A stretch of 63,290 bases of DNA, the filler included, from Caldilineae bacterium (lineage in GTDB: Bacteria; Chloroflexota; Anaerolineae; DTLA01), in NCBI GenBank assembly GCA_037446815.1. It is 6 parts of 6 records of this genome, joined end to end, with 100 filler letters (N's around TTAATTAATTAA, not from the genome) between each part and the next. Parts side by side here need not be neighbours in the genome. Positions count along the whole stretch, not along the records: positions 1 to 10,593 come from JBBIHX010000096.1; positions 10,694 to 21,253 come from JBBIHX010000097.1; positions 21,354 to 31,844 come from JBBIHX010000099.1; positions 31,945 to 42,434 come from JBBIHX010000100.1; 2 more parts are not named here. One strand, written 5' to 3'. Shown in pieces: positions 1-42,434 of the stretch. The first letter of the stretch is position 1, and every line of letters begins with the position of its first letter. Both the position numbers and the translations under genes were made by a program. The notes below the pieces were generated by a model. It did no database searches, was not told where the DNA came from, and was given only the letters and a program-made list of their open reading frames with translations.

Positions 1-27
1 GATGCCAACAGACTTTGAAACCGACTC
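1..27. mobile_element. MITE end (A-type end, partial copy; the rest lies outside the window)
   Basis: GATGCCAACAGACTTTGAAACCGACTC is the reverse complement (one terminal mismatch) of the start of the copy at 10329. Confidence 0.85.
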
Positions 28-42
28 CGGTGGTTGCACTCC

Positions 43-71
43 TTGACTTTTCGCCCCTTGCGTGCTATCCT
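43..71 (+). promoter_or_regulatory. sigma70-type promoter
   Basis: TTGACT(43-48)-17 nt-TATCCT(66-71), with a TG extended -10, upstream of the CDS at 106. Confidence 0.65.
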
Positions 72-105
72 TCGCCCTGCAAATTCCGGAGTGGATGAGT
101 GCCTC

Positions 106-1005
106 ATGGGATACGAGCGAATTGATGATGATGTCTACGTTTTCTCCAGCGACACCTATGCGCAGGTAACGGCGGGTCTGGTGTTCACGAGGGAGGGGGC
201 CATCCTGATTGACACCCTCCCCTTCCCGCGGGAGACGCAGTCCATCCTGCAGTTTGAGCGGCGTCGTGGCGGTATCGGGGTGCGGTATGTCATCAATACC
301 CATCACCACGCCGATCACGTGTACGGCAACTACCTGTTTCCGGGCGCGAGGGTCATCGCTCACGAGGGCTGCCGCGCGGCGATGGTGAAGGATGGGCCGG
401 CGCTGCTGGAGCGAGACCGTCAATCCATGCCGCAACTCATGGACGTGGTGCTCCGCTTCCCAGACGTTACGCTGGACAAGGGCGGGGCCATTCACATCGG
501 CGGCAAATCCATAGAGATCATTCCCCTGCCCGGCCATTCGGACGATCTGCTGGGCGTATATCTGGTGCAGGAGAAGATTCTGTTTGCCAGCGATGCAATG
601 ATGCCGGTGCCATACATCGTGGGGGGAAACCCGGAGGCGTACAAGCGGTCGCTCTTGCGGATGGCGGAGTTGAACCTGGAGAACCTGGTGCAGGGGCATG
701 GCGAGGTGCTCCTGCGCGGCGAGATTCCCGATGCGCTCAATGCCAACATCGCGTACCTGGACATCCTTCGCGAGCGGGTGAGGGAGGGGATTGCGATGGG
801 CCTGACCCGCGACGAGATCGCGGCGCTGGATATTGAGGAATGCGGACTGTCGCGGGTTCCCCTGGGCGGACTGGCGCAGCATTTGCATCGCGCCAACGTG
901 TTGTATCTGTACGATGGGATGCGCCGCGGGGTGATTCCGCTGACGGGCGATGAGCCAGAAGCCCACGGGAATTCGGGGGAAGACGACGATGAGGAAGTTG
1001 CGTAA
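106..1005 (+). CDS. MBL-fold metallo-hydrolase (cyclase-like)
   Basis: THHHADH (HxHxDH), GHS, SD and GHG metal-binding motifs. ATG at 106 chosen because it lies downstream of the promoter. Confidence 0.85.
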   Translation: MGYERIDDDVYVFSSDTYAQVTAGLVFTREGAILIDTLPFPRETQSILQFERRRGGIGVRYVINTHHHADHVYGNYLFPGARVIAHEGCRAAMVKDGPALLERDRQSMPQLMDVVLRFPDVTLDKGGAIHIGGKSIEIIPLPGHSDDLLGVYLVQEKILFASDAMMPVPYIVGGNPEAYKRSLLRMAELNLENLVQGHGEVLLRGEIPDALNANIAYLDILRERVREGIAMGLTRDEIAALDIEECGLSRVPLGGLAQHLHRANVLYLYDGMRRGVIPLTGDEPEAHGNSGEDDDEEVA

Positions 1006-1444
1006 TCGCAAGAGCGCTGCAAGTTCGTCGCCTTCCAAGCCGCCCGATTTTACGGTGATCTTTGACGGCGGGAGCCGGGGGAATCCGGGCCCCGGGTACG
1101 GGAGTTTCCTGCTGGTGCGGCATGCCGATGGCGCGCAACGGCATCAGCGCCTGACGCTCGGAAGCCGCCTTACCAGCAACGAGGCGGAGTATGACACGCT
1201 GGCCCACGCTTTGGAGAACCTGCTGGCGTGGGTTCGTGAGTTGGGGCTGCGACCTGAAGACGTGTCGGTGGGGGTCCGCGGCGATAGCCAGTTGGTGATC
1301 CTCCAGATGCGGGGGGATTGGAAGGTGCGGAACGCGCGGATGGCGGTGCGGCGCGACCGCGTGTTGGCGCTTGCGCAGCAGTTTGGCGCGGTGCAGTGGG
1401 AGCATCATCCGCGCCTCTCGTCGGTGTTGATTCTGGGGCACTGA
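989..1444 (+). CDS. ribonuclease HI family protein
   Basis: FDGGSRGNPGPG, TSNEAEY and GDSQLV motifs typical of RNase HI. The C-terminal helix appears to be missing. Start uncertain. Confidence 0.85.
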   Translation: MRKLRNRKSAASSSPSKPPDFTVIFDGGSRGNPGPGYGSFLLVRHADGAQRHQRLTLGSRLTSNEAEYDTLAHALENLLAWVRELGLRPEDVSVGVRGDSQLVILQMRGDWKVRNARMAVRRDRVLALAQQFGAVQWEHHPRLSSVLILGH

Positions 1445-1473
1445 GCCGACGCGGGCGCAGGGCGGCGTTGGAG

Positions 1474-1893
1474 TTACTCTTCGGGCATTTCCTGCACGGG
1501 CAGGTCCAAATCCACCAATTCTCCGTGGACGTTCACGGTTGCGCGGAAGCCCATCATTCCGAGATAGAGCCGCGCTTCTTCGGGCAGGCCGAACTCCATC
1601 ATCTGATCCACTTGCTTGTCCAGGTTCTGGAGGGTGGCGTCCACGGCTGCTTTGGTGAAGAGGTCGTCGCGGCCGATCATCTCCAGGATTTGCGCCGTAA
1701 CGATGTCGCGGTGCTCCACCAATAGGTCGCGCAGGCGGGCGAGGATTTGCTGGTCCACGTCGCGCGCGGGTACATGCCGAAGGAACCCGTATTCGGGGAT
1801 GGTGTAGCAGGGTTCGTCGCCGACGTAGGCGACGCCGACGGGTTCGCCCTCTTCGTTGTAGATTAGGCCCTCAAACAGAGGCTTCTTGGCCAT
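1474..1893 (-). CDS. hypothetical protein
   Basis: Acidic 139-aa ORF with host-like codon usage. No recognised motif. Confidence 0.7.
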   Translation of the reverse strand: MAKKPLFEGLIYNEEGEPVGVAYVGDEPCYTIPEYGFLRHVPARDVDQQILARLRDLLVEHRDIVTAQILEMIGRDDLFTKAAVDATLQNLDKQVDQMMEFGLPEEARLYLGMMGFRATVNVHGELVDLDLPVQEMPEE

Positions 1894-1955
1894 AGGGTTC
1901 ACCGAGCAGCCGCGTTCGGGCGGGGTTCGGCCACCGCAGGGTCGGGCTGTCCAGG

Positions 1956-2028
1956 TACCCCCGGAGCGACTTGAACGCTCAGCCGACTGCTTAGAAGGCA
2001 GTTGCTCTGTCCGTTGAGCTACGGGGGC
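1956..2028 (-). tRNA. tRNA-Arg(UCU)
   Basis: Minus strand reads GCCCCCGTAGCTCAACGGACAGAGCAACTGCCTTCTAAGCAGTCGGCTGAGCGTTCAAGTCGCTCCGGGGGTA. Cloverleaf with anticodon loop CTTCTAA. CCA not fully encoded (CCT). Confidence 0.95.
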
Positions 2029-2036
2029 TCACGCAA

Positions 2037-2066
2037 ATTATAGCACCAGAGCGCCCGATGTGGCAA
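2037..2066 (-). promoter_or_regulatory. promoter of tRNA-Arg
   Basis: Minus strand TTGCCA(2066-2061)-18 nt-TATAAT(2042-2037), with a TG extended -10. Confidence 0.7.
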
Positions 2067-2081
2067 CTCGCGCAGGCTGCT

Positions 2082-2507
2082 GGCTCGGTTCCGTCTTGTG
2101 CCGGTCCGTCCCACGCACCGCCTCCCGGCCCTGTCATGCTGAGCCGAAGGCGATACGCCCTCGCCCTTCGGGAGAGGGCTGGGGTGAGGGGCGAGATTCT
2201 TCGCGGCTTCGCCGCTCAGAATGACGGTAGATGCCAACAGACTTTTCGGTAACCGCGAAGGACACGAAACTAGGCGAATGGAGCGCGAGATTCCTCGGCG
2301 CTTCGCGCCTCGGAATGACAGGTCGGGGGTGGCTTCGGCGCGTCGCGCCCTCGGAGTGACGGTTCGGTAACCGCGAAGGACACGAAACTAGGCGAATGGA
2401 GCGCGAGATTCCTCGGCGCTTCGCGCCTCGGAATGACAGGTCGGGGGTGGCTTCGGCGCGTCGCGCCCTCGCAATGGCGGGTTACCAACCGACTCTGGAA
2501 CCGAGTG
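2082..2507. mobile_element. composite MITE / palindromic repeat cluster between divergent tRNA-Arg and tmRNA
   Basis: B-type end at 2082 (GGCTCGGTTCCGTCTTGTG), GTCATGCTGAGC...CTCAGAATGAC cargo, truncated A end at 2230-2245, a 118-bp-period duplication, and a second A end at 2483-2507. Confidence 0.8.
2245..2471. repeat. 109-bp direct repeat, period 118
   Basis: TTCGGTAACCGCGAAGGACACGAAA...CGCGCCCTCG at 2245-2353 and 2363-2471. Confidence 0.9.
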
Positions 2508-2513
2508 GTGTTT

Positions 2514-2541
2514 TTGCCTTTTGCGCAATTGCGACTATAAT
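2514..2541 (+). promoter_or_regulatory. promoter of ssrA
   Basis: TTGCCT(2514-2519)-16 nt-TATAAT(2536-2541), 10 nt before the tmRNA 5' end. Confidence 0.7.
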
Positions 2542-2551
2542 AGTACTGCTT

Positions 2552-2939
2552 GGGGATGAATGGTCTCGACGGTGGAGGCTGATCAGGGACTGCAAGCCGA
2601 GGCGCCCAACCGCGTGAAAATGGGCAAAACGAGAAGTGCGACCTTCGCACAGAAGCCGGCTTTGGCCATCGCTGCCTAGTCAGCGAGCGTCAATGCCTTA
2701 GTTACCTGCGGGTAACTACGTCCTGACCATCTCTCTCCCGGTGAGGTGGATCCAGGGCGTCATGAAGACCGGGATGCAGTCCTCCGGATGCCGATACGGG
2801 GGAATCAAGACCATCGGCTGGCTCCATAGAGCCCCTGTTGGCCGGGCGCTCGTGGGGCGAGATACGAAAGGCCGACTACGCTTGTAGATGTCTCTGGTCG
2901 AATCCTTCGGACGCGGGTTCGATTCCCGCCATCTCCACC
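2552..2939 (+). ncRNA. ssrA: tmRNA; tag peptide (A)ATFAQKPALAIAA at 2638-2679
   Basis: 5' GGGGATGAATGGTCTCGAC, 3' GACGCGGGTTCGATTCCCGCCATCTCCACC. Ala-type acceptor stem with G3:U, and a tag ORF ending LAIAA*. Confidence 0.95.
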
Positions 2940-2942
2940 TGG

Positions 2943-2972
2943 AGAAGCGGCTCAAGGGCCGCTTCTTGTTTT
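2943..2972 (+). terminator. intrinsic terminator after ssrA
   Basis: AGAAGCGGC-TCAAGG-GCCGCTTCT hairpin followed by TGTTTT. Confidence 0.75.
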
Positions 2973-3000
2973 GTGCGGCTGCGGCGCCGTCGCAGGCGAT

Positions 3001-3150
3001 GATTCGGTTCCAGAGTCTGTTGGTGCCTGTCATTGCGAGGGCGCGGAGCGCCCGAAGCAATCTCCGGGGCGTGCGATTGCTTCGCTTCGCTCGCAATGAC
3101 ACACGAGGAGAGTACGCCTACGGTTCACCAACACAAGATGAAACCGAATC
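3001..3150. mobile_element. 150-bp MITE, complete, TSD CAGGCGAT
   Basis: Ends GATTCGGTTCCAGAGTCTGTTGGTG and CACCAACACAAGATGAAACCGAATC. CAGGCGAT at 2993-3000 and 3151-3158. Confidence 0.92.
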
Positions 3151-3165
3151 CAGGCGATGGACGCT

Positions 3166-3194
3166 TTGACATGCCCGCGGCGACAGACTATAAT
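3166..3194 (+). promoter_or_regulatory. consensus sigma70 promoter of the DUF177-rpmF operon
   Basis: TTGACA(3166-3171)-17 nt-TATAAT(3189-3194). Confidence 0.85.
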
Positions 3195-3232
3195 GCGCCG
3201 TGCTGTGTTTTGGTTTGCGGAAGGTGTAGGCA

Positions 3233-3754
3233 ATGCGATTCAACGTGGCGCAACTGCTCCTGGGCCCCACCGGCGGGACGCGGGAGTATGATTTGGATGA
3301 CGATATCAGCGGCTTGGATCCGCTCATTGTGCCGCAGAGCACGCTGGTGGGCCATGTGCGCTTCACCCACGTGGGGCCCAACGTGCTGGTGGAGGGCAGC
3401 GCGCACGCGGACTTGGAACTCATCTGCACGCGATGCGCGGAGCCTTTTGTGGAGCGGGTGTCCATTGAACTCATGGAGGAGTTTGAGCCTAGCATAGACG
3501 TGCTGACCGGGCGGGTGCTGCCGAACGTTCACGAGGACCCGGCCCTTGTCATTGACAAGCACAACATGCTGGATCTCAGCGAGGTGGTGCGGCAGAACCT
3601 GCTCCTGGCGATGGATGACCATCCCCATTGCCGGGAGGACTGCGCGGGAATCTGCCCGCACTGCGGTCGCAACCTGAACACCGAGACCTGCACCTGTACG
3701 GACGAGCCGGTGGACCCGCGATGGGCTCCGCTGGCCGACTTGCAGGCGAGTTGA
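3233..3754 (+). CDS. DUF177/YceD family protein
   Basis: CxRC and C...CxGICxxCG..N motifs and a DPRW C-terminus; directly upstream of rpmF. Confidence 0.92.
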   Translation: MRFNVAQLLLGPTGGTREYDLDDDISGLDPLIVPQSTLVGHVRFTHVGPNVLVEGSAHADLELICTRCAEPFVERVSIELMEEFEPSIDVLTGRVLPNVHEDPALVIDKHNMLDLSEVVRQNLLLAMDDHPHCREDCAGICPHCGRNLNTETCTCTDEPVDPRWAPLADLQAS

Positions 3755-3778
3755 CATCATTGGAAGGAGTGTTTTGAC

Positions 3779-3967
3779 ATGGGTGCTCTACCGAAGCGAA
3801 AACTGTCCAAGGGACGGCGAGATCGCCGCAGGTCGCATCTGGCCTTGAAGACCACGTCGCTGGTCGCGTGCCCCCAGTGCAAGAGCCTGCGCCCGCCGCA
3901 CCGAGTGTGTCCGAACTGCGGGTACTATCGCGGCGAGGAACGAATTTCGGTTAAGGACAAGGAATAG
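3779..3967 (+). CDS. rpmF: 50S ribosomal protein L32 (zinc-ribbon type)
   Basis: PKRKLSKGRRDRRRSH followed by CPQC...HRVCPNCGYY. Confidence 0.97.
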   Translation: MGALPKRKLSKGRRDRRRSHLALKTTSLVACPQCKSLRPPHRVCPNCGYYRGEERISVKDKE

Positions 3968-4127
3968 GCGGCGCGTCTGGTCGCCTGGGGTGTTGGTGCT
4001 GTGGCCGTGGTGCGGGATGCCGCTGCACGGCCTTTCTTTTGGGGTTTGCGCCGCGGTCCTGCTTGACGTTAGGCGCGCAATGGGGTAATCTAGGGGACAC
4101 GAGGCTCTTTGGATAAAGGGGGTGTCT

Positions 4128-4487
4128 ATGGAACACGAGACTGCGGGCAAGGTTACCCTGGCTCCCAGCGTCCTGACCACCATCGTAACCCTCACGGTCA
4201 ACGCGGACGAGGGCGTGGCGCACCTGTGCAAGGACTGGCGCAGCGATGTCAGCCGCTTTCTCGGCGTTGGCAGCGCGGAGGACGGGGTCCGGGTAGACGT
4301 GGAGGGTAACAGCGTGGCCATAGATGTCCACCTGGTCGCGAAAGCCAACGTGAACCTGCTGGCGCTGGGGCGCCGGCTGCAATCGGAGATCGCGCGCGCC
4401 ATCAGCGACATGGTGGGCATGGTGGTCCGCGAGGTGAACATCTTCATAGAAGACGTGGAGATTCCCGATTCCGAGGAGCAGGTGTAG
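4128..4487 (+). CDS. Asp23/Gls24 family envelope stress protein
   Basis: GKVTLAPSVL...GVRV...MVGMVVREVNIFIEDV pattern, and the usual position upstream of nusB. Confidence 0.85.
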   Translation: MEHETAGKVTLAPSVLTTIVTLTVNADEGVAHLCKDWRSDVSRFLGVGSAEDGVRVDVEGNSVAIDVHLVAKANVNLLALGRRLQSEIARAISDMVGMVVREVNIFIEDVEIPDSEEQV

Positions 4488-4490
4488 GCT

Positions 4491-4964
4491 GTGAAAGTAC
4501 GGCGGCGTGCTCGCATTGTTGCTTTGCAGGCCCTCTTTGAAACCGATAGCGTGGGCCATCCTCCGGACGCCGTGCTTCAGCACCGCCTGGAAGAGACCCC
4601 GCTTCCCGATGCGGGCGTGGATTTCGCGCGCGCGTTGGTCTTTGGCGTGCTTGAGCACCGCAAGCAACTGGATGCATTCATCCAGAAGAACGCGCCCCAG
4701 TGGCCCGTTGAGCAGATGGCGACCATAGACCGCAACATCTTGCGCATCGCCTTGTTTGAACTCTACGTGGATCGCACGACGCCCATGAAGGTCGTCATCA
4801 ACGAGGCTGTGGAATTGGCCAAGATGTTCGGCAGTGAAAGTTCCCACCGATTTGTGAACGGCGTCCTGGGCAGTTTTGTGGCCCAAATGCAGGCGATGCC
4901 GAAGCCATCCCAGGCGCAGCAAGTGGCCTCCCCCCAAGGTTCGGCGGGAGAGGAGGAGGCATGA
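4491..4964 (+). CDS. nusB: transcription antitermination factor NusB
   Basis: RRRARIVALQALF, IDRNILR, VINEAVELAK and FVNGVL motifs. Confidence 0.96.
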   Translation: MKVRRRARIVALQALFETDSVGHPPDAVLQHRLEETPLPDAGVDFARALVFGVLEHRKQLDAFIQKNAPQWPVEQMATIDRNILRIALFELYVDRTTPMKVVINEAVELAKMFGSESSHRFVNGVLGSFVAQMQAMPKPSQAQQVASPQGSAGEEEA

Positions 4965-5341
4965 CCTTATTCGGAATCGGTCCCGGCGAACTGATCCTCA
5001 TCTTCGTGCTGGCCCTGATTATCTTCGGCCCGCAGCGTCTGCCGGAGGTGGCGCGAACCATCGGGAAGGCGGTCAACGATTTCCGGAAGACGTCGGAAGA
5101 AGTTACCACGGCGGTTGCGCGGGAATTGAACGTGAGCGAAGCCGCGGAGCCGGACAGCACAGCCACGCCACCCATCCGACCCACGCATAGCATTCCGCTG
5201 TCCAAGGTGGGCGAGGTGGTGGCGCACGAAGCCGCACCCGACGCGGCAACCCCGGCGGGTCCTGCGATGCCTGCCGCGCCCGCGGAGCCTGCCGAGAATC
5301 CCGGTGAGCCTGACGAAGGGAGTCGCGTCCAGCATGACTGA
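4961..5341 (+). CDS. TatA/TatB family translocase subunit
   Basis: GIGPGELILI...IIFGPQRLPE helix motif with a disordered Pro/Ala tail; upstream of tatC. Confidence 0.9.
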   Translation: MTLFGIGPGELILIFVLALIIFGPQRLPEVARTIGKAVNDFRKTSEEVTTAVARELNVSEAAEPDSTATPPIRPTHSIPLSKVGEVVAHEAAPDAATPAGPAMPAAPAEPAENPGEPDEGSRVQHD

Positions 5342-6074
5342 GAACAACCGGATGCCATTGCTGGCGCACCTGGGCGAGTTGCGCGATCGCCTCATCAAGT
5401 CCTTTGTCGCGCTCCTTGTGGGCACATTGGTCAGCCTGTTTGTGTTCACGCCGCGGCTGTTTGAAATCGTTATCCGCCCGATGCAACCCAACGTGCCCGT
5501 CGCCTTGCGGCCCACCGAGACCATCATCGTGTACTTCAAGTTGGCGCTCATCGTGGGTGTCGTGCTGGCGATGCCGGTCATCGTGTACCAACTGGTGCGC
5601 TTTGTCGTCCCGGGTCTCACGCCGCAGGAGAAGCGATACCTGTACTACCTTTTGCCCGCCGCGACCCTGTCGTTTGCGGTGGGCGTCCTGTTCGCGGCCC
5701 TGGTCATGCTCCCCTTCGCCATCGCGTATCTCAAAGGGTTCATGAGCGACATTGTGCGGCCAACGTACTCCATAGATTCTTACATCTCCTTTGTAACGGG
5801 GCTGCTGTTCTGGGTGGGCGTTACGTTTGAGACGCCGCTCATCATCTTCTTCCTGGCCAAGTTGGGTGTTGTAACTCCCGCCTTCTTGGCGAAGAACCGC
5901 AAGTACGCGGTGCTGTTGATTGCGGTGCTGGCGGCGGTCATCACGCCGACGCCCGACCCGTTCAACATGATGATCGTCATGCTCCCGCTGATGCTGCTGT
6001 ACGGGGTGGGCGAGATTCTGGCGCGGTTCGCCAGGCCGTTGGCGAAACCTCGCGCAGGCAGCAATTCGCAATAA
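5334..6074 (+). CDS. tatC: twin-arginine translocase TatC
   Basis: MPLLAHLGELR, PGL.P.EK, FETP and AAVITPTPDP motifs. Confidence 0.96.
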   Translation: MTENNRMPLLAHLGELRDRLIKSFVALLVGTLVSLFVFTPRLFEIVIRPMQPNVPVALRPTETIIVYFKLALIVGVVLAMPVIVYQLVRFVVPGLTPQEKRYLYYLLPAATLSFAVGVLFAALVMLPFAIAYLKGFMSDIVRPTYSIDSYISFVTGLLFWVGVTFETPLIIFFLAKLGVVTPAFLAKNRKYAVLLIAVLAAVITPTPDPFNMMIVMLPLMLLYGVGEILARFARPLAKPRAGSNSQ

Positions 6075-6109
6075 TGCAAGGATTCCACGAGGATTAGAGG
6101 AGGCTTTCA

Positions 6110-7426: not shown

Positions 7427-7464
7427 GTTGGGACCGCGGACCCCGATCGGCAGGAGGTGGAGCC

Positions 7465-8856: not shown

Positions 8857-10260
8857 TCAGACCTGGATCGTCTTCCATTTGCCCCCGCGATACCGCAGGA
8901 AGGCGAGCAGCCCGCGGAAGAACAGGTCCGTGCACATGGCGACCCACGCCCACGATAATCCAAGCCCCAGGATGGTGATGAAGAGGATGGCCAGTGGCAC
9001 TCGGATTCCCCAGATGCACCCCGCGACGATGTAGAGCGGGTATTTGGTATCGCCCGCGCCCCGCAGCGCGCCGTTGATGATCATGGCGGCGGCCAATGCC
9101 GGCTGGGCCAGGCCCACGATGCGCAGCGGCGTGATGCCGAGCGCAATCACCTCGGGGTCGGAGGTGAAGAAACTGACGAGCGGGACCGGGAACAAGATGA
9201 ACACGATTCCCATGACGCCCATCAGCGCGGCGCCAATGGCAAAGGCGGTGTAGCCGTTGCGTTCAGCCTCCTTGGGGGCTTGCGCTCCAAGCGCCTGCCC
9301 GACGAGCGTCGTTGCGGCGACGGCGAATCCAAACCCCGGCATGTAGGACAGCGACTCGGCATTGAGCGCCACTTGATGCGCGGCGAAAGCGGCGGTGCCC
9401 AGCGTGGCGACGACGCGGGCATACGACATCTGTCCAAAGCGAAACAGCAGTTGCTCCAGGCCCGACGGGATGCCGACGCGCAGGATGCGCCGAATGATAT
9501 GCCAGTCGGGCCGGAGTTTGTCCAGCACGAGGCAGAGGGCGCCGCGCCCTTTGGCCAGGGTGGTCAAAGCGAGGACGCCACCGGTCAGGCGGGCGGTGGC
9601 CGCACCGATGGCCGACCCGGCGACACCCATCCGCGGCAAGCCGAAGGCCCCGTTGATGAGCGACCACGCCACGACGATGTTGATGGCGTTCACGATGAGC
9701 ATGATGCGCAGAGGGGTGCGCGTGTCGCCGGCGCCGCGCATGGCGGCGTTGCAGATGAACATGAGCGTGGCGGGTAGGAACACGGCGGCGACGATGCGCA
9801 GGTAGGTGGTGCCCAGACCGAGGGCTTCGGGTTCGGCGCCCATGGCCGCTACCGCCGGACGGGCCAGCGCAACGCCCAGCAGTGTGGCGGCAAGCCCGAT
9901 GCCCGCGCCGAGAATCACCGACTGGCGCAGCACGCGGTTGGCAAGGGGCGTATCCTTGGCCCCGACGGAGCGCGCGATGAGGGCCGTGCTGCCGACGCCG
10001 ACGGCTCCGAAAAGCGCGTTGGTGAGGAATACCCACTGATTGGCGAGCCCGACCGCTGCAAGGGCCGCCGCGCCGATGTGCCCCACAAGGAATGTGTCCA
10101 CGATGCCCACCATCATGGCAAGCAGCTGTTCGCCCGCGGCAGGCAGGGCAAGCCGAAGCGTTGCCAGCGCGGCGGACTGGCCCAAGGCGCGCTGGGGGAG
10201 GGAGGCCGCGGCGCGAAGTCGCGTCGCCACGGCGTGAGAAGACCGGTTGATGGATCTCAT
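8857..10260 (-). CDS. MATE family efflux transporter
   Basis: About 12 TM segments; VDT..VGHIG, two RGAGDT repeats, and a RG.KWK C-terminus. Confidence 0.93.
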   Translation of the reverse strand: MRSINRSSHAVATRLRAAASLPQRALGQSAALATLRLALPAAGEQLLAMMVGIVDTFLVGHIGAAALAAVGLANQWVFLTNALFGAVGVGSTALIARSVGAKDTPLANRVLRQSVILGAGIGLAATLLGVALARPAVAAMGAEPEALGLGTTYLRIVAAVFLPATLMFICNAAMRGAGDTRTPLRIMLIVNAINIVVAWSLINGAFGLPRMGVAGSAIGAATARLTGGVLALTTLAKGRGALCLVLDKLRPDWHIIRRILRVGIPSGLEQLLFRFGQMSYARVVATLGTAAFAAHQVALNAESLSYMPGFGFAVAATTLVGQALGAQAPKEAERNGYTAFAIGAALMGVMGIVFILFPVPLVSFFTSDPEVIALGITPLRIVGLAQPALAAAMIINGALRGAGDTKYPLYIVAGCIWGIRVPLAILFITILGLGLSWAWVAMCTDLFFRGLLAFLRYRGGKWKTIQV

Positions 10261-10328: not shown

Positions 10329-10503
10329 CAGTCGGTTTCAAAGTCTGTTGGCATCTACCGTCATTCTGATCGGCGAAGCCGCGAAGAATCTCGCCCCTCA
10401 CCCCAGCCCTCTCCCGAAGGGCGAGGGCGTATCGCCTTCGGCTCAGCATGACAGAGTGGGGAGGCGGCGCACGAGACAGGCAAACACCGTTCGGAACCGA
10501 ATC
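10329..10503. mobile_element. 175-bp MITE, TSD CAAATGCG
   Basis: Ends CAGTCGGTTTCAAAGTCTGTTGG and ...GGAACCGAATC. CAAATGCG at 10321-10328 and 10504-10511. Confidence 0.88.
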
Positions 10504-10511
10504 CAAATGCG

Positions 10512-10593: not shown

Positions 10594-10693
10594 NNNNNNN
10601 NNNNNNNNNNNNNNNNNNNNNNNNNNNNNNNNNNNNNTTAATTAATTAANNNNNNNNNNNNNNNNNNNNNNNNNNNNNNNNNNNNNNNNNNNN
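10594..10693. other. artificial contig linker
   Basis: N run containing TTAATTAATTAA. The same linker occurs at 21254-21353, 31845-31944, 42435-42534 and 52887-52986. Confidence 0.98.
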
Positions 10694-13241: not shown

Positions 13242-13406
13242 GATTCGGTTCCAAAGGGTGTTGGTAACCGTCATTGCGAGGCGCGGGCGGAAGCCCCTGA
13301 CCCCAGCCCTCTCCCGGCGGGCGAGGGAGCAACGCCCTCAACGGCCTTCGGCCTCCCCGCGAGGAGAGTGGACATGCGCTTCACCAACCCAAGATGGAAC
13401 CGAATC
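13242..13406. mobile_element. 165-bp MITE variant, no recognisable TSD
   Basis: Ends GATTCGGTTCCAAAGGGTGTTGG and CCAACCCAAGATGGAACCGAATC, with an internal CCCAGCCCTCTCC...GAGGG hairpin. Confidence 0.85.
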
Positions 13407-29587: not shown

Positions 29588-29687
29588 NNNNNNNNNNNNN
29601 NNNNNNNNNNNNNNNNNNNNNNNNNNNNNNNNNNNNNNNNNNNNNNNNNNNNNNNNNNNNNNNNNNNNNNNNNNNNNNNNNNNNNNN

Positions 29688-29809
29688 CCCTCGCCCGTCG
29701 GGAGAGGGCTGGGGGTGAGGGGCGATACGCCCTCGCCCTTTGGGAGAGGGCTGGGGTGAGGGCCGCGCTCCCTCGCAATGACAGGTACCAACAGACTCTG
29801 AACCGAATG
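29688..29809. mobile_element. partial MITE (A end) with two GGAGAGGGCTGGGGTGAGGG hairpins
   Basis: ...CTCGCAATGACAGGTACCAACAGACTCTGAACCGAATG, next to a scaffold gap. Confidence 0.75.
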
Positions 29810-31944: not shown

Positions 31945-31992
31945 CTGCGTGCCCTCGCAATGACAGCCACCAACAAACTTTGGAACCGACTC
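31945..31992. mobile_element. partial MITE (A end)
   Basis: CTCGCAATGACAGCCACCAACAAACTTTGGAACCGACTC. Confidence 0.85.
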
Positions 31993-32007: not shown

Positions 32008-33317
<1,310 letters not shown>

Positions 33318-33956: not shown

Positions 33957-33965
33957 AAATCATTG

Positions 33966-34045: not shown

Positions 34046-34065
34046 AATCAGCACCTAGCGAGGGA

Positions 34066-35439: not shown

Positions 35440-35446
35440 AAGGGCG

Positions 35447-35475
35447 TTGACACTCTCGCGGGCTCCGTCTATAAC
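35447..35475 (+). promoter_or_regulatory. sigma70-type promoter
   Basis: TTGACA-17 nt-TATAAC. Confidence 0.7.
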
Positions 35476-35515
35476 TGCACACTGAAACGCGACTCTGTAC
35501 ACAGGGAGTTCTTGC

Positions 35516-35911: not shown

Positions 35912-35949
35912 CCCGCGCACCGTTGAGATTCTGCCCGGAGGGGACGCCC

Positions 35950-36489: not shown

Positions 36490-36559
36490 GCAACAAGGGC
36501 CTGGACACGCGCCGGGCAGACATCGGCGCCGACCGACAACTTACCAGGGAGGGAAAGCG

Positions 36560-36967: not shown

Positions 36968-36997
36968 GAGCGACAGCCCGGACATAGGTGCCCGACA

Positions 36998-37026
36998 TTG
37001 ACGCAAACGGCGAATTGACCTATACT
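36998..37026 (+). promoter_or_regulatory. promoter of the DUF4258 pair
   Basis: TTGACG-17 nt-TATACT. Confidence 0.7.
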
Positions 37027-37046
37027 CACCGCGTAGGTGAGAGCCG

Positions 37047-37370
37047 ATGAGCCTGATAGATGATATCCGAGTGAAGTTCGCGCGAGGCGAGTTTGAGTTC
37101 TCTCAGCACGCCGTGGATCAGACCATTCTCCGTCGGATCCGCGTTCAGGAAATTCGGGAGGCGATTGCCTGCGGAGAGGTGATTGAGGATAACCCGCACG
37201 ACAAGTACGGGCCGAGTTGTCTGATACTGGGGTTCACAGAAGCAGGCAGGCCCTTGCACATCCAATGCAGTCATCCGTCGCGCCCCCTCGTGAAGGTGAT
37301 AACCGTCCACGAGCCCGATGCAGACCTGTGGGGCGATTTCAGAACCAGGAGGCGCCAGGATGGAACGTAA
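37047..37370 (+). CDS. DUF4258 family protein (putative toxin)
   Basis: FSQHA...R.I, GEVIED.P.DKYGPSCLILG...RPLHI, VITV.EPD...W. Confidence 0.85.
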   Translation: MSLIDDIRVKFARGEFEFSQHAVDQTILRRIRVQEIREAIACGEVIEDNPHDKYGPSCLILGFTEAGRPLHIQCSHPSRPLVKVITVHEPDADLWGDFRTRRRQDGT

Positions 37371-37587
37371 CACAGCGCAAGAGACGATGGTAGAGCAGAA
37401 AGTAACATACGTGATTGAGATTGAGGGCAGAATTGTCGTTATTGAGAACGTGCCGGCGCGCGTCTGCCTGGAAACGGGCGAGCGATTCTTTGCACCGGAA
37501 ACGGTAGAGCGTTTGCAGCAGATGATCTGGGAAGACAGAAAACCCACCCGCATCGTTGAGGCCGCGGTGTTTGAATATGCCGCGTGA
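37360..37587 (+). CDS. YgiT-type zinc-finger-like protein (putative antitoxin)
   Basis: IENVPARVCLETGE.FF.PET; overlaps the DUF4258 gene; AGGAGG RBS. Confidence 0.8.
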   Translation: MERNTAQETMVEQKVTYVIEIEGRIVVIENVPARVCLETGERFFAPETVERLQQMIWEDRKPTRIVEAAVFEYAA

Positions 37588-37792
37588 TGGAGCCCCTTTG
37601 CGGCCAACCCGAGGTTTGTGTTTCTCCGCGCTGCCCGCGTTCTCTACGGCGAATTGCGGCCATTGCCATCTGCACGCCACGTGTGTTGTTCGGGGATGAC
37701 CCCAGCCCCGCGCGGGGCAGCGGCGACGAGCCTTGCGCTCCCTATCTGTGAAATCCGTGTTATTCGTGGATACATCCTGCCCGGCGCCGATT

Positions 37793-37821
37793 TTGACACA
37801 ATCCGCAACCCGTGGTACACT
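37793..37821 (+). promoter_or_regulatory. thrS promoter
   Basis: TTGACA-17 nt-TACACT, with a TG extension. Confidence 0.75.
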
Positions 37822-37839
37822 TCTTGCAACGGCACATGC

Positions 37840-38089
37840 CAAAGGCGATGACCAGGACGAGTACCCGGACGCCGGGCGTCAGGGAGAGGGGGCCACTGAC
37901 TGCAAGCCCCCTTCGCACCGGGCCGAGGGAAAACCCCCTGTGAGCCGGCACCAGAACGCGATGCTGCAAGTAAGGTCGCCCGGGATGCCCCCGTTATCGG
38001 CGCAATGAGATGAGAGCGTATGCGCGCTCTCAACCTTGGGTGGAACCGCGAGACAACCCCTCGCCCCTTGGGCGTGGGGTTTTTTGTTT
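37840..38089 (+). ncRNA. T-box riboswitch (Thr, specifier ACC)
   Basis: GCGATGA/AGTA/GAGAG/CTGA stem I elements, GAAA-ACC specifier at about 37933, GTTA, T-box GGGTGGAACCGCG at 38038-38050, and a terminator with a T run at 38055-38086. Confidence 0.92.
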
Positions 38090-38100
38090 AGGTGCAGGCT

Positions 38101-38165
38101 GTCAGCAATCAGCAGTCAGCAGGGAGTCGGGCGGGCTGATGGCTGAACGCTGACCGCTGAAGGCT
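38101..38165. repeat. heptamer-periodic inverted repeat in the thrS leader
   Basis: (TCAGCAA/TCAGCAG)x3 ... (GCTGATG GCTGAAC GCTGACC GCTGAAG). Confidence 0.75.
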
Positions 38166-38185
38166 TGACACCAAGGAGGAACGAG

Positions 38186-39949
38186 ATGGAACACGAACAC
38201 ATGGACGAGCACAGCGAACTGGACCGAATGCGGCATTCGGCGTCCCACGTCATGGCCCAGGCCGTGATGGACCTGATTCCCGACGCCAAACTGGCCATCG
38301 GCCCCGCCATTGAGGATGGCTTCTACTACGACTTTGACCTGCCCAGGCCGCTCACGCCCGAGGACCTGGAGCAGATTGAAGCCCGCATGCGCGACGCCAT
38401 CCGCGCGGACCATCCCTTCGTGCGGCGTGTCATCAGCCGCGCCGAGGCCGAGGCCATGTTCGCCGACCAGCCCTACAAACTGGAACTCATCCGCGAGATT
38501 CCGGAGGGCGAGGAAATCTCCATCTACACGCACGACCGCTTCACGGACTTGTGCGCGGGGCCCCACGTGGCCAGCACGGGCCAGATCAACCCCGACGGCA
38601 TCAAACTGCTGAACGTGGCGGGGGCTTACTGGCGCGGCGACGAGAGGCGCCCCATGCTCCAGCGCATCTACGGCACGGCCTGGCCCACGAAAGCAGAACT
38701 GGACGCCTATCTGGCCAAACTGGCCGAGATTGAGCGCCGCGACCATCGCAAACTGGGCAAGCAACTGGACTTGTACAGTTTCCACGAGATCGGCGGCGCG
38801 GGCCTGGCTTACTGGCATCCGAAGGGCGCGCGCATCCGCAGCATCATTGAGCAGTTCTGGCGCGAGGAGCACTTCCGCCGCGGCTACGACATCCTGTACA
38901 CGCCCCACATCGGGCGCGTGGACCTGTGGAAGATCAGCGGCCACTGGGACTTCTACCGCGAGAACATGTACTCGCCCATGGACATTGAGGGGCAGGAGTA
39001 CTTGCTCAAGCCCATGAACTGCCCCTTCGCCGTCCTCATCTACAAAACGCAGATGCGCTCCTACCGCGACCTGCCCTTGCGCTGGGGCGAGTTGGGCACG
39101 GTGTACCGCTACGAGCGGTCGGGCGTGCTCCATGGGATGCTGCGCGTGCGCGGGTTCACGCAGGACGACGCCCACATCTTCTGCCGCCCCGACCAACTGG
39201 AGGACGAGATCGTCGGCGTCATCAACCTAGCCCAGTTCATGCTCAAGACTTTCGGCTACGACGAGTACCTGATTGAACTGTCGGTGCGCGACCCGCAGAA
39301 CAAGGCCAAGTACGTCGGCTCGGAGGAGAACTGGATTCTGGCCGAGCAGGCGCTGCTCCGCGCGCTGGAGCGCGAGGGCCTGTCCTTCACACGCATGGAA
39401 GGCGAGGCCAAGTTCTACGGCCCGGCCATTGACATCAAGATGAAGGATGCGCTGGGCCGCGCTTGGCAGGGGCCGACGATTCAGGTGGACTTCAACTTCC
39501 CGGAGCGGTTTGACCTCACCTACGTCGGCGAGGACGGCCAACCCCATCGCCCCGTCATGGTACACCGCACGGTGCTCGGCTCCATGGAGCGGTTCGTCGC
39601 GGGGCTGGTGGAACAGTACGCCGGGGCGTTTCCCGTGTGGCTCGCGCCGGTGCAGGCGGTGCTCATCCCCATCGCCGACCGCCACAACGCCTATGCCCAC
39701 GACGTAGCGCGGAAACTCAAGGACGCTGGCTACCGCGTCGTCGTGGACGACTCCGGCGAACGGATGAATGCCAAGATTCGCAAAGCGCAACTGGACAAGG
39801 TGCCGTACATGCTCGTCATCGGCGACCGCGAGATGGAAGCGGGCGCCGTGGCGGTCCGCAAGCGCACGGGCGAGGACCTGAAGGCGAAGCCCCTGGCCGA
39901 GTTCATGGCGATGATCGCCGAGGACGTGCGGAGCAAGGCCATCTGGTAG
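38186..39949 (+). CDS. thrS: threonine--tRNA ligase (no N-terminal TGS domain)
   Basis: RHSASH, DLCAGPH editing domain, RDHRKLG, KPMNCP, RVRGFTQDDAHIF and an anticodon domain. Confidence 0.97.
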   Translation: MEHEHMDEHSELDRMRHSASHVMAQAVMDLIPDAKLAIGPAIEDGFYYDFDLPRPLTPEDLEQIEARMRDAIRADHPFVRRVISRAEAEAMFADQPYKLELIREIPEGEEISIYTHDRFTDLCAGPHVASTGQINPDGIKLLNVAGAYWRGDERRPMLQRIYGTAWPTKAELDAYLAKLAEIERRDHRKLGKQLDLYSFHEIGGAGLAYWHPKGARIRSIIEQFWREEHFRRGYDILYTPHIGRVDLWKISGHWDFYRENMYSPMDIEGQEYLLKPMNCPFAVLIYKTQMRSYRDLPLRWGELGTVYRYERSGVLHGMLRVRGFTQDDAHIFCRPDQLEDEIVGVINLAQFMLKTFGYDEYLIELSVRDPQNKAKYVGSEENWILAEQALLRALEREGLSFTRMEGEAKFYGPAIDIKMKDALGRAWQGPTIQVDFNFPERFDLTYVGEDGQPHRPVMVHRTVLGSMERFVAGLVEQYAGAFPVWLAPVQAVLIPIADRHNAYAHDVARKLKDAGYRVVVDDSGERMNAKIRKAQLDKVPYMLVIGDREMEAGAVAVRKRTGEDLKAKPLAEFMAMIAEDVRSKAIW

Positions 39950-40318
39950 GGTAAGACTTGCGGACACCCGTGCGCAACGTTGCGGATGAACCTCATCTTA
40001 TGCGACCGGTGCGGCAGGCGTCGCGCGGCGGGTTTGCATTGGCCAGCGCCCGCTCCGCGACGCCTGCTGCTGGGCAGCGGATGCTCCAGTCCGCGCCTGC
40101 GAACCTAACCCCATTCTGGGAGACCCGTCGTGAGCCATGGCCTGCTTGACATTCGCATCGTCCAGCGGTACAACCGGCCGTACTTCCTGCGGCTGCTGTC
40201 GGAGCGCGAAGACGCCGCCGGTCAGCCGCTCCCCGCCGATACACGTCCGGCAACGGCGCCCGATCCGTGCCCTTGACAAGAACACACCATGTGGTGGCGA
40301 AGCACCATGAGACCTGAA

Positions 40319-40507
40319 GTTGGGCAAATTGTCAATTTGCCCAACCAGCGCGGGGCTGAAGCCGCGAGGAATCCCACGCCCCCGGGCGCACACTGTAGGG
40401 GCGCCCAGCCGGTCGCCCTACTCGCGATGACATAACGTGCGACGCACCTCGGAGGTGCGTCGCACGTTACCTATCCTCACCCCAGCCCTCTCCCGTGGGC
40501 GAGGGCG
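40319..40507. repeat. cluster of several palindromic repeat families
   Basis: 27-bp hairpin at 40319-40345, GTAGGGGCG hairpin at 40395-40421, perfect 18-bp-arm palindrome at 40433-40469, and a CCTCACCCCAGCCCTCTCCC hairpin. Confidence 0.8.
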
Positions 40508-40543
40508 TGTCGTCACGCCTGCCGCGCCAACCACGGGTCCGCC

Positions 40544-41281
40544 TCAGTCCCCCTGTCGCGCCTCCGCGCACGCGGCCCGGACATACCGCTGCGTCCAGGG
40601 GCACGCCGCGATGCACGCGCCGCAGATGCCGATGCTCGGCTCTGCGCCGATGGCCGGGGCGAAGCGGCGCGTCGTCCGATAGCAAGCGTCGGCGTCCACC
40701 ATCGCCTCGCGGGGGAGTCCCGCGCGCCACAGCCCGCCCGCGATGGCCCCGCCCGGGCACGCCTCCACGCAGGCCGTGCACGCCCCGCAGCGGCTGGCGT
40801 CCACAGGCGCGGCGGGTTCCAGCGGCGCGTCGGTGAGCACCGACATGAGCCGCACCGCCGAGCCGTACTGCTCCGTAATCAGCAGGGCGCAGCGGCCGAT
40901 CCAGCCCAGGCCCGCCCGCGTGGCCACGGTCTTATGGGGCAAGGGCGTGTCGTACTGGCCGAACTCCACGCCTGCGACCGTCGCCGTGCCGAAGGTCGCC
41001 CGGTACCCCCATCCGCGCAGGGCTTCCGCAGCGAGCCGCGCGAGTTCCCCCAGCAGCGCGTTGGCGCGGTGGTACTCGGCGAGGTACTCCGGCGTGGGGC
41101 CGTGGCGGATGCCGGCGATGACGCGCGGGTTGAGGGGGACGGCGATGGAGACGGCGCGGGGCAGATCATGTCGCGCATGCGCCGCGATGCCCGACAGGTC
41201 GGCGAACCCCACCAGCCCCGCGCCCGACCCGAGGAGAAGAGTTATCAGCAGATCGCGTGGACAGTCGGCGCCGGTTGTCAT
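40544..41281 (-). CDS. epoxyqueuosine reductase-like 4Fe-4S protein
   Basis: HK.VA.RAGLGWIG, VLTDAPL, CGACTACVEACP and CGACIAACPW. Confidence 0.82.
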   Translation of the reverse strand: MTTGADCPRDLLITLLLGSGAGLVGFADLSGIAAHARHDLPRAVSIAVPLNPRVIAGIRHGPTPEYLAEYHRANALLGELARLAAEALRGWGYRATFGTATVAGVEFGQYDTPLPHKTVATRAGLGWIGRCALLITEQYGSAVRLMSVLTDAPLEPAAPVDASRCGACTACVEACPGGAIAGGLWRAGLPREAMVDADACYRTTRRFAPAIGAEPSIGICGACIAACPWTQRYVRAACAEARQGD

Positions 41282-41329
41282 TGTGTTTTCCCGATGCGCG
41301 TGCGGCAATAGTAGCACATGCGGCAAGTG

Positions 41330-41827
41330 CTATAGTTCGTTGAGAATCCTCATCACTTCGGCTTTCAGATGAGGGATATCTTCCGTTGCGGTTAGCCAGA
41401 CCTTCTCAATATCCACGCCGAAGTAGTCATGGATGAGTTTGTTGCGCATCCCGGCTATGTTTTGCCACGGTATGTGCGGGTGCGCCCTTATGCAATTCAT
41501 CAGGAATGTGTCGCACGGCTTCGCCGATGATCTCAAGTTGACGGATGACGGCATCTTGGACCATGCCGCGCTCATAGAAATCCGCCTCGGTAACGCCTGC
41601 GAGGATTCGGTTCCATTTTGTGTTGGTGAAACGCCTGGGCACTCTCCTCATGTGTCGTTGCGAGCGAAGCGAAGCAACCTCACGCCCCAGAGATTGCTTC
41701 GGGCGCTCCGCGCCCTCGCAATGACAAATACCAACAGACTTTGGAACCGAATCCCTGCGAGGTACGACTCCACCCTGGCAATGGCATCCCGTATGTGCTG
41801 CAAGTACACCGAGTCATCACGCTTCAT
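41330..41827 (-). pseudogene. DUF86/HepT-like HEPN toxin, disrupted by a MITE and a +1 frameshift
   Basis: Removing 41604-41753, one CCTGCGAG copy and one base at about 41486 restores a 112-aa MKRDDSVYLQHI...GMRNKLIHDYFGVD... protein with the RX4HXY motif. Confidence 0.9.
41604..41753. mobile_element. 150-bp MITE, TSD CCTGCGAG
   Basis: Ends GATTCGGTTCCATTTTGTGTTGG and CCAACAGACTTTGGAACCGAATC. TSD at 41596-41603 and 41754-41761. Confidence 0.93.
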
Positions 41828-42107
41828 AGATCACCTTGCGGTCGCGTTGGATACGGTCGCGCAAGTAGGGGCTGATGGATGCCTCCGTCAGCAAGTCCAC
41901 TTTCCGCCCGATGGCCGCAGACAACTGCCGCTCCAGCGCGACCAATGCGAGCAGACTCTTGCGCTTGGAGAACTCCACAAGCATGTCCACATCGCTTGCG
42001 GCCGTGGACTCGCCTCGCGCGACGGATCCGAAGACGGACAGCCGCGCAACGTCATTTCGGCGGCAGATTTCTATCAGTTCGTTGACATCAAAAGGCAGGC
42101 CAGCCAT
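41817..42107 (-). CDS. minimal nucleotidyltransferase (MNT/MntA-type antitoxin)
   Basis: FGSVARGE....SDVD (GSX10DXD) and GRKVDL; overlaps the HEPN start. Confidence 0.92.
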   Translation of the reverse strand: MAGLPFDVNELIEICRRNDVARLSVFGSVARGESTAASDVDMLVEFSKRKSLLALVALERQLSAAIGRKVDLLTEASISPYLRDRIQRDRKVIYEA

Positions 42108-42124
42108 GCATCTCTCCCACCGTC

Positions 42125-42153
42125 ATTGTACCCGCCGCGCGGCTTTGCGTCAA
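42125..42153 (-). promoter_or_regulatory. MNT-HEPN promoter
   Basis: Minus strand TTGACG(42153-42148)-17 nt-TACAAT(42130-42125). Confidence 0.75.
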
Positions 42154-42169
42154 TCTGCATGTGCGCTCG

Positions 42170-42434
42170 GACACGGCTCATCTTGTGTTGTTCCGTCCCA
42201 CACGCAGCCTTTCCATCTTCTGTCATGCCAGGCCGAAGACGGTACGCCCTCGCCCCTCGGGAGAGGGCCGGGGTGAGGGCCACGCCCCCTCGCCCTTCGG
42301 GAGAGGGCTGGGGTGAGGGCCACGCCCCCTCGCCCTTCGGGAGAGGGCTGGGGTGAGGGGAGGATTCTTCGGCGCCTCGCGCATCAGAATGACGGCTCTT
42401 GTAACCGCGAATAACACGAATCCACGCGAATAGG
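42170..42434. mobile_element. degenerate MITE (B end) with a 3x40-bp tandem hairpin array
   Basis: GACACGGCTCATCTTGTGTTG resembles the B end. CCCTCGCCCYTCGGGAGAGGGCYGGGGTGAGGG occurs three times with period 40 (42247-42359). Confidence 0.7.

Follow-up and report, generated by a model that had tools for sequence, protein, structure and literature searches.

The window analysed here is a stretch of 63,290 bases joined from contigs of the metagenome-assembled genome (MAG) of a Caldilineae bacterium in the class Anaerolineae (G000; 3,187,165 bases in 265 contigs, 65.6% G+C, 93.6% complete). It carries copies of a miniature inverted-repeat transposable element (MITE) whose ends repeatedly lie 15 nt upstream of the -35 box of a predicted promoter. 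The window was counted as eight MAG contigs with seven 100-nt linkers (N...TTAATTAATTAA...N) between them, beginning at 10594, 21254, 29588, 31845, 42435, 52887 and 60485, and because contigs are joined in this way several apparent element ends are cut by contig breaks; the loci cited are still independent of one another.

A preliminary description, made from the window alone, had reported a distance of exactly 15 nt at the ends 27, 2082, 3150 and 31992, and this was confirmed, the hexamers being TTGACT, TTGCCA, TTGACA and TTGACA. The degenerate copy that it placed near 42170 ends at about 42171, 16 nt from TTGACG (42154-42149), and the ends 13242, 41604, 46105 and 63076, which it had set aside as not fitting, have no convincing promoter. 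Three further ends, 2507, 10329 and 43622, had been described as a class lying closer to their promoters. The closer positions are real, with a -35-like hexamer at 6, 5 and 4 nt and an exact TATAAT, but they do not form a distinct class in this genome: 8 ends with a promoter score of at least 9 have gaps of 3-7 nt, 7 have gaps of 8-12 and 7 have gaps of 19-23, with no separate peak. At two of the three, the opposite element end lies 15 nt from another -35-like hexamer. The closer register is the main one of the autonomous copies in other genomes, to which we return below.

Element ends are phased on promoters

Element ends were accepted at no more than five mismatches to one of two 24-nt end consensuses, which gave 666 inverted-repeat ends in G000, as compared to none with the reversed consensus, and 636 outward flanks were analysed. 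The gap is the number of nucleotides between the element end and the -35 hexamer. Promoters of the sigma70 type were scored against TTGACA, a spacer of 16-18 nt and TATAAT (maximum 12), with 20000 random positions as the control for the score and 40000 per-flank draws as the control for the locus test.

The base profile of the flanks shows almost no conservation at positions 1-15, after which T accounts for 53% of the bases at position 16 and 55% at position 17 (17% background) and G 39% at position 18, giving TTG at 16-18 and a TAnAAT-like or TAnnnT pattern at 39-44. The trinucleotide TTG is found at gap 15 in 153 of the 636 flanks and at gap 16 in 43, most other gaps having 2-18; TTGAC is found at gap 15 in 72 flanks, and TATAAT at gaps 37, 38 and 39 in 13, 44 and 25. 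Secondary TTG peaks, 64 at gap 27 and 32 at gap 22, arise because the inverted repeat of a second, abutting element starts 8 nt away. A score of at least 9 was reached in 208/636 flanks and in 148/20000 random positions, and 188 of the 636 flanks reach it at gaps 14-17, where the chance rate is about 0.5%. The gaps of the promoter-facing ends are 14 (20 ends), 15 (125), 16 (30) and 17 (11), so the genome-wide histogram of distances that the preliminary description had proposed shows a sharp peak at 15 nt. The 188 promoter-facing ends represent 186 flank clusters between which no 16-mer is shared, and duplicated contigs do not, therefore, inflate the count. When 153 complete loci were scored at 8 or more, a promoter was found on one side in 91, on both in 11 and on neither in 51, the chance rate per flank being 199/40000. 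The promoter-facing end was of type A in 60 instances and of type B in 53, in agreement with the claim that either end can face the promoter. Seen from the side of the promoters, there are 588 sites in the genome with a score of 10/12 or more, and at 127 of them (21.6%) a MITE end is found 14-17 nt upstream.

The 13 positions next to the element at the 125 gap-15 ends, that is, the target duplication and the nucleotides after it, often have an A+T content below 25%, as compared to 34% in the genome, and no consensus. Such a composition may reflect either a preference in the choice of target or the general make-up of upstream regions in the organism.

The coding direction of the DNA downstream indicates that the promoters are authentic. 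Calling downstream genes by the longest open reading frame (ORF) was uninformative (promoter flanks 121 '+' and 65 '-', the rest 224 and 156), and because this approach fails at 65.6% G+C we used a codon-phase G+C test instead, over 150-540 nt downstream, which was checked on two window genes. Of the 164 callable promoter flanks, 151 have a coding phase directed away from the element and 13 one directed toward it; the flanks without a promoter were evenly divided, 149 away and 155 toward.

The promoters are also older than the insertions. We compared G000 with four genomes of the same genus (G001, G002, G003 and G004; five with G000). In the spacer between tmRNA and DUF177-rpmF, TTGACA-N17-TATAAT is kept in all four, and G001 and G002 have no MITE there; in G000 the MITE is flanked on each side by CAGGCGAT, and the -35 box begins after a further 7 nt. 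The divergent tRNA-Arg/tmRNA spacer is an uninterrupted site in G003 and G004, with both promoters present and no insertion. The single MITE of G003 lies elsewhere, flanked by TGCGCACC, then 7 nt, then TTGACG-N17-TAACAT. Empty sites with conserved promoters in the relatives mean that the promoter is the target of the element and not its cargo. At the DUF177 promoter of G003 and G004, about 15 nt from the -35 box, we also observed a degenerate sequence that resembles an element end (ACCAACGAAAGCC.CAA...GATTG), perhaps left by an earlier and independent insertion of a related element.

Table 1. Family members, predicted promoters and adjoining genes in the window. The gap is counted in nt from the element end to the -35 hexamer; scores are out of 12.
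Feature	Position	Strand	Remarks
MITE terminal 27 nt, type-A repeat, cut by contig start	1..27	-	Outer end 27; 3 mismatches to 24-nt consensus
Promoter TTGACT (43-48), 17-nt spacer, TATCCT (66-71)	43..71	+	Gap 15 from end 27; score 9/12; downstream gene of metallo-beta-lactamase fold, as named in the preliminary description
tRNA-Arg promoter TTGCCA (2066-2061), 18-nt spacer, TATAAT (2042-2037)	2037..2066	-	Gap 15 from end 2082
Composite 426-bp element between divergent tRNA-Arg and tmRNA promoters	2082..2507	.	Right end 2507 is 6-8 nt from tmRNA -35 (TTGCCT), exact TATAAT
Complete 150-bp MITE, type-A left, type-B right	3001..3150	+	Duplication CAGGCGAT (2993-3000, 3151-3158)
Promoter TTGACA, 17-nt spacer, TATAAT (DUF177-rpmF)	3166..3194	+	Gap 15 from end 3150; score 12/12
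Tandem pair: 175-bp element (10329-10503), 8-nt spacer (10504-10511), second element cut by contig end	10329..10593	.	Spacer CAAATGCG, which also adjoins left end of 10329 element
Promoter TTGTGA, 16-nt spacer, TATAAT		-	5 nt from end 10329
165-bp family member	13242..13406	.	Promoter at neither end
Terminal MITE part, cut by contig start after linker	31945..31992	-	Outer end 31992
Promoter TTGACA (32008-32013), 17-nt spacer, TATCCT (32031-32036)	32008..32036	+	Gap 15 from end 31992; score 10/12; downstream gene obgE, as named in the preliminary description
Complete 150-bp MITE between two small minus-strand ORFs	41604..41753	.	Duplication CCTGCGAG; promoter at neither end
96-aa ORF downstream of promoter 42126..42154	41817-42107	-	
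Promoter TTGACG (42154-42149), 17-nt spacer, TACAAT (42131-42126)	42126..42154	-	Gap 16 from degenerate end
Degenerate composite: type-B-like end with 1-nt deletion, then 40-nt tandem modules, into contig end	42171..42434	.	
Complete 150-bp MITE	43473..43622	+	Duplication TGTTTTAG; TTGCTC at gap 15 from left end, weak -10
TTAGCA, 16-nt spacer, TATAAT			4 nt from right end 43622
194-bp family member	46105..46298	.	Neither end with convincing promoter
Two abutting elements (63076-63226; 63236 to window end)	63076..63290	.	9-nt spacer

The element and its repeated insertions

The two end types, type A (...CCAAAGTCTGTTGGT) and type B (...CATCTTGTGTTGGT), follow the pattern 5'-GA.TCGG...CCGA.TC-3', and they agree with the inverted repeats of 18-39 bp with a terminal C of Mutator elements. 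Pairing of the ends gave 219 elements with a modal size of 150 bp, together with a 175-bp subfamily and composites. Another 228 ends were left unpaired, and contig ends are frequently found in these repeats, 143 of the unpaired ends reaching a contig end. None of the other 85, which all have room inward, leads into an autonomous copy; all are composite or degenerate MITEs. The target duplication is 8 bp, exact in 81 of 213 elements and within one mismatch in 123 of 213, and the same test at 7 and 9 bp gave 4 and 2 elements. Of the 150-bp form there are 148 copies with A/B ends and 24 with A/A ends; its interior is a long palindrome, and the mean identity of the copies to the consensus is 91.7%. 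The elements are thus short and without coding capacity, they have 24-nt terminal inverted repeats and a fixed 8-bp duplication, and no transposase was found in the bin, all of which supports that they are bona fide non-autonomous elements, as the preliminary description proposed.

The burst of the MITE is lineage-specific. A strict pattern gave 220 matches in G000, one match each in two of the four same-genus genomes and none in 36 other genomes of the class. A scan of public contigs with a 20-nt core of the end gave at least 103 stretches, mostly chance single matches in unrelated taxa, and the genuine ends among the matches listed belong to Anaerolineae, Caldilineales or Chloroflexota, plus one contig binned as Planctomycetota and one as Propionicimonas. 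The former carries a MITE of about 125 bp with the duplication CAGCAACG, the latter, 1799 nt long, a full-length insertion sequence (IS); these occurrences can be either horizontal spread or mis-binning.

Many elements stand directly beside another. The spacer between abutting elements was exactly 8 nt in 29 of 44 cases, and in several pairs it had the sequence of the outer duplication, on one side or on both, so that, for instance, CCGTTACA or TTGGGCCA is found three times. Such spacers are the expected product of re-insertion into a regenerated 8-bp target beside the same promoter, and selection alone does not readily explain them or the identical duplications.

Some observations were made on the internal sequence of the elements. 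The 73-nt palindromic core of the MITE (window 3028-3101) is also present without MITE ends in G003 and G004, as tandem repeats whose period is about 82 nt (79 and 116 matches), and it seems that the MITE captured a pre-existing palindromic repeat, or the reverse. A unit of about 40 nt (CCCTCGCCCTTCGGGAGAGGGCTGGGGTGAGGG) forms short tandem runs in or beside composite elements at 42241-42360, 2155-2191 and 29685-29763. The composite element between the tRNA-Arg and tmRNA promoters contains a 118-bp unit doubled in tandem (2240-2475, 97% identical). Two contigs of G000, C72 and C73, share the same sequence around the MITE end near 9916/9917, which suggests redundancy or strain variants in the bin.

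The probable partner transposase and the relatives

The core of the end sequence was compared with 401 genomes of the class, and in several of them pairs of ends were found about 1.5 kb apart, bounding an IS of about 1.51-1.54 kb with the type-A end upstream and the type-B end downstream of an ORF of 427-440 aa. The ends of the IS in these other Anaerolineae are identical to the MITE ends at 21-22 of 24 positions. The search for a transposase gene with the same ends, which the preliminary description had suggested, thus found an autonomous IS in other Anaerolineae and none in the G000 bin or the genus. The transposase is present in 19 of the 401 class genomes at E 1e-20 or better, and of 8000 metagenome clusters scored at least 1698 reach E 1e-5 or better, labelled 'transposase-like' or hypothetical.

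The protein resembles several IS families without belonging to any of them. The 427-aa protein matches Pfam Transposase_mut (PF00872) with 24.4 bits (cut-off 21). All eight members match the NCBIfam models of IS256 (NF033543) and ISH6 weakly, member 1 with 38 and 37.8 bits (the cut-off for IS256 is 150), and the best IS256 E value is 3.5e-11, but the NCBIfam IS-family cut-offs were reached by none of the eight. ISKra4 (NF033572, cut-off 205 bits) was matched by none of the eight at E 0.01 or better, and ISLre2 (NF033529) by one at E 0.0092, far under the family score. Profile comparison with hhalign against alignments of IS256 and ISKra4 proteins built from class genomes gave 94.3% (E 9.6e-8) for the former and a probability of 93.9-95.9% (E 1.6e-7 at 93.9%) for the latter, and on these profiles the family appears equally distant from both.

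Residues D170, D233, C254 and H257 are invariant in 38 sequences, the last two in the motif QRCVWHLWRN. An AlphaFold model (pLDDT 78.7) predicts a zinc ribbon, helices, an RNase-H-like sheet and a long helical insert, with a strand at 250-253 followed by helices at 255-344. The best match among solved folds is the ISCth4 transposase 6xg8 (E 2.6e-8, TM 0.47-0.50); a sequence search of the PDB with the family profile found nothing credible, the best E value being 0.0068 for an unrelated protein. We take ISCth4 to be a member of the IS256 family, and it reportedly served to describe copy-out/paste-in transposition. The DDE RNase-H-like core, the C/D-x2-H motif after the second Asp, the long helical insert before the Glu and the 8-bp duplication are all features of the Mutator superfamily. 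Within this superfamily of DDE transposases the partner enzyme, which has an IS256-like fold and a C-x2-H motif, belongs to an unnamed clade. The preliminary description had expected a Mutator-like transposase of the TnGBS/ISLre2 group; the kind of mechanism and the superfamily are right, the latter as judged from Pfam and the ISCth4 fold, but not the group, since none of the eight members reaches its family cut-off.

Profile searches of G000 with PF00872 and NF033572 gave no match. PF06782 (UPF0236) gave none either, which is uninformative as the control genomes also lacked a match. Loci of ISKra4 were tried as the partner and rejected: none of 30 from the class has the MITE ends, and three matches at 8 mismatches are noise.

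Proximity to promoters is seen in the relatives as well. G001 and G002 each have about 50 ends of a variant of about 100 bp, and 6 of 35 sampled ends score at least 9, all at gaps 15-16. Among other families of the class, 4 of 11 ends in one genome and 3 of 7 in another are at gaps 15-16, 3 of 11 in a third are at gap 5, and a fourth has one end each at gaps 6, 8 and 21 among 16. Autonomous copies were examined at 80 metagenome loci, where an outward-facing site of at least 9 is present in 45 of 111 flanks and an inward-facing one in 9. These sites cluster at gaps 4-5 (20 of 52 sites), TTGAC stands at gap 5 in 10 flanks, and the TAnnnT pattern is commonest at gaps 27-28 (22), a second, lower maximum (13) lying at 38-39; sites adjoin both ends. 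Lying close to promoters is thus a trait of the family, in two or more registers separated by about one helical turn. Either the transposase variants differ in register, or selection shapes it.

How the insertion site may be chosen

We consider it probable, at roughly 85%, that the MITE ends correspond to the left and right inverted repeats of the IS of about 1.52 kb, and that its transposase, acting in trans, inserts the MITE by a promoter-phased 8-bp cut. Judging from the model, the enzyme would consist of an N-terminal zinc ribbon, a helical DNA-binding region, the RNase-H-like core and the long helical insert. Supplied in trans, it would paste the element in with an 8-bp staggered cut, and the duplicated 8 bp would occupy the stretch from 15 to 8 nt before the first T of the -35 box, or about -50 to -43 relative to the transcription start. 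The -35 box, spacer and -10 box would be left intact, with either end facing the promoter, and the target regenerated beside the promoter could receive later insertions into the same 8 bp, building tandem arrays with 8-nt spacers. By analogy with IS256 and ISCth4 the chemistry may be copy-out/paste-in, and the site may be found by contact with the promoter-bound RNA polymerase holoenzyme, as proposed for TnGBS.

Several results weigh against this reading. One third of the complete loci (51/153) have no recognisable promoter at 14-17 nt, and the promoters at the element ends are predicted from a consensus score and are not mapped starts. The transposase is absent from all five genomes of the genus, and the best tblastn match in G000 has E 0.079, in a bin that is 93.6% complete and with IS copies often left unassembled; mobilisation in trans is therefore an inference here, and the element may now be immobile. 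The copies differ by about 8% from their consensus, and at 91.7% mean identity the insertions are old and selection has had time to filter them. Autonomous copies elsewhere lie mostly 4-5 nt from the -35 box, not 15. Finally, a matching 8-bp duplication was found in only 12 of 56 autonomous metagenome copies, which we attribute, without proof, to chimeric assembly or recombination between copies.

It is possible, but we think doubtful, that the targeting is real but that the transposase reads the promoter DNA itself, the TTGAC hexamer or a DNA shape, without docking on RNA polymerase or sigma. In favour of this, the clearest single signal is TTG or TTGAC at the fixed gap 15, the model places a zinc ribbon and a helical DNA-binding region in the protein, and a register that varies by lineage (15-16, 5, 6-8) could easily follow from changes in a DNA-reading domain. 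However, the -10 box is enriched as strongly as the -35 box and stands at the usual 17-nt spacing from it, and genes follow 92% of the sites; this is not decisive, since TTGAC outside promoters is mostly found in genes, where insertions are lost. Registers about one helical turn apart fit docking on one face of a bound complex. It is very unlikely that the insertion is unspecific in intergenic DNA and that selection keeps the 15-nt spacing because it is harmless or useful, for example as an insulator or activator site. The divergence of the copies and the loci without a promoter would agree with such filtering, and the unusually G+C-rich 15 nt between end and -35 box could reflect functional constraint. 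Selection would hardly give a peak one nucleotide sharp, 125 ends at gap 15 as compared to 20 at 14 and 30 at 16, or exact 8-nt tandem spacers, which show that the same 8-bp target is reused. The promoter fraction does not rise with the age of the copies but is flat across copy-identity classes (22/33, 28/45, 20/36 and 4/5), the autonomous and presumably recent copies elsewhere are also promoter-phased, and related transposases target the same position according to the available text of PMC3942029.

A promoter consensus at a fixed distance from a repeat could also mean that the promoter is carried inside the mobile unit. This explanation has practically no probability left: the 15-nt gap, the 17-nt spacer and the downstream sequence are unique to each locus (188 ends, 186 clusters), the 8-bp duplication sits between the element and the -35 box, and the empty sites of the sister genomes, with the same promoters and no element, refute it. 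A partner of the TnGBS/ISLre2 group would share the superfamily, the 15-17-nt register and the 8-9-bp duplications (PMC3942029, available text), yet it is highly improbable. The IS protein has no above-threshold match to ISLre2 or ISKra4, G000 has no match to ISKra4 or Transposase_mut and none of the 30 ISKra4 loci of the class has these ends, and the insertion is unoriented (A 60, B 53), unlike that of most ISLre2.

Going beyond the promoter-phased insertion in trans that we favour, one may tentatively suggest that an unnamed IS256-like Mutator clade gained promoter-guided integration independently of TnGBS/ISLre2 and ISKra4, in two registers set by the geometry of docking on RNA polymerase, and that its MITE has become a module on about a fifth of the strongest promoters of this genome. 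In one register the duplication would end 7 nt upstream of the -35 box, in the other it would overlap the first bases of the box. A geometry with two registers would be expected if the transpososome docks on one face of the promoter-bound holoenzyme. As a standard upstream module the MITE may replace the UP-element region, and its long hairpin may insulate the promoter. The preliminary description had seen the region upstream of strong housekeeping promoters as a 'safe harbour' for the element, which, like guidance by RNA polymerase, is still an inference.

Promoter-phased integration as such is known. The available text of Guerillot et al. 2014 (PMC3942029) reports that insertion at 15-17 bp upstream of sigmaA -35 boxes is found both for TnGBS/ISLre2 and for 13 ISs in the ISKra4 group, with Mutator-like duplications of 8-9 bp, which bears out what the preliminary description had cited. 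Between the domains N1 and N2, the promoter-targeting transposases of p-MULT 3 and ISKra4 are reported to share a conserved motif that includes an Asp. It links near-perfect inverted repeats to insertion in both orientations, describes IS256 insertion as random and without promoter enrichment, and proposes contact with the RNA polymerase initiation complex by analogy with Ty3. According to the available text of a 2022 survey (PMC9208149), ISLre2 is found almost only in Firmicutes, and ISLre2 and ISKra4 lie 50-250 bp from genes. The words 'MITE', 'miniature' and 'non-autonomous' do not occur in the main text of PMC3942029 available to us, and no bacterial MITE phased on -35 boxes was found in the full-text literature searched, with subscription journals and ISfinder outside it.

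The element resembles the ISKra4 group (p-MULT 4 in PMC3942029, available text) in its Mutator DDE transposase, the fixed distance upstream of -35, near-perfect repeats, insertion in both orientations and 8-9-bp duplications, and that group is reported from Chloroflexi among other phyla. It differs in that the family has C-x2-H like IS256, where ISKra4 proteins have D-x2-H, and in that the window element is a 150-bp non-autonomous derivative in hundreds of copies. With the integrative and conjugative elements TnGBS and with ISLre2 (p-MULT 3) it shares a position 15-17 bp upstream of -35, here gaps 14-17, that leaves the promoter intact. Those elements insert in one orientation with the right repeat by the promoter, whereas here both ends face promoters; they also have another transposase family, almost only in Firmicutes (PMC9208149, available text), and the host here belongs to Anaerolineae.

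IS256 and ISCth4 (6xg8, 6xgx, 6xgw) give the best structural match, over about 400 residues, with QRC..H..RN after the second Asp, the 8-bp duplication and a size of about 1.3-1.5 kb with a single ORF in common; the family differs by its score of 38 bits (cut-off 150), an extra N-terminal zinc ribbon and its promoter phasing. Correia and RUP/BOX-type elements are examples of bacterial MITEs. Like bacterial MITEs such as MITEAba12, the element is short and non-coding, with inverted repeats, a duplication, a high copy number and probable mobilisation in trans by an IS transposase, but the known ones reportedly create or alter promoters or target short motifs, and none phased on pre-existing -35 boxes was found in the literature searched.

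The kind of event, promoter-phased Mutator-type integration, is thus a known one, and what is new is that it concerns a MITE, in Anaerolineae, with a partner from an unnamed IS256-like clade and with lineage-specific registers, about 10 nt apart. It is the first non-autonomous promoter-phased element found in the literature searched, and its scale is that of hundreds of natural insertion sites in one genome, with 188 phased ends and 127 of the 588 top promoters occupied. The transposase is a third lineage with promoter phasing, and structurally it is near the only Mutator-type transposase with solved transpososomes. Promoter-phased integration has been known for a few Mutator-like elements, mostly in Firmicutes; a small single-ORF enzyme and a 150-bp substrate make promoter-finding by a transposase testable. 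The position of the element ends at promoters explains why the contigs of such bins break at promoters, and it also means that the ends can mark promoters across a genome, at no cost, in an uncultured phylum.

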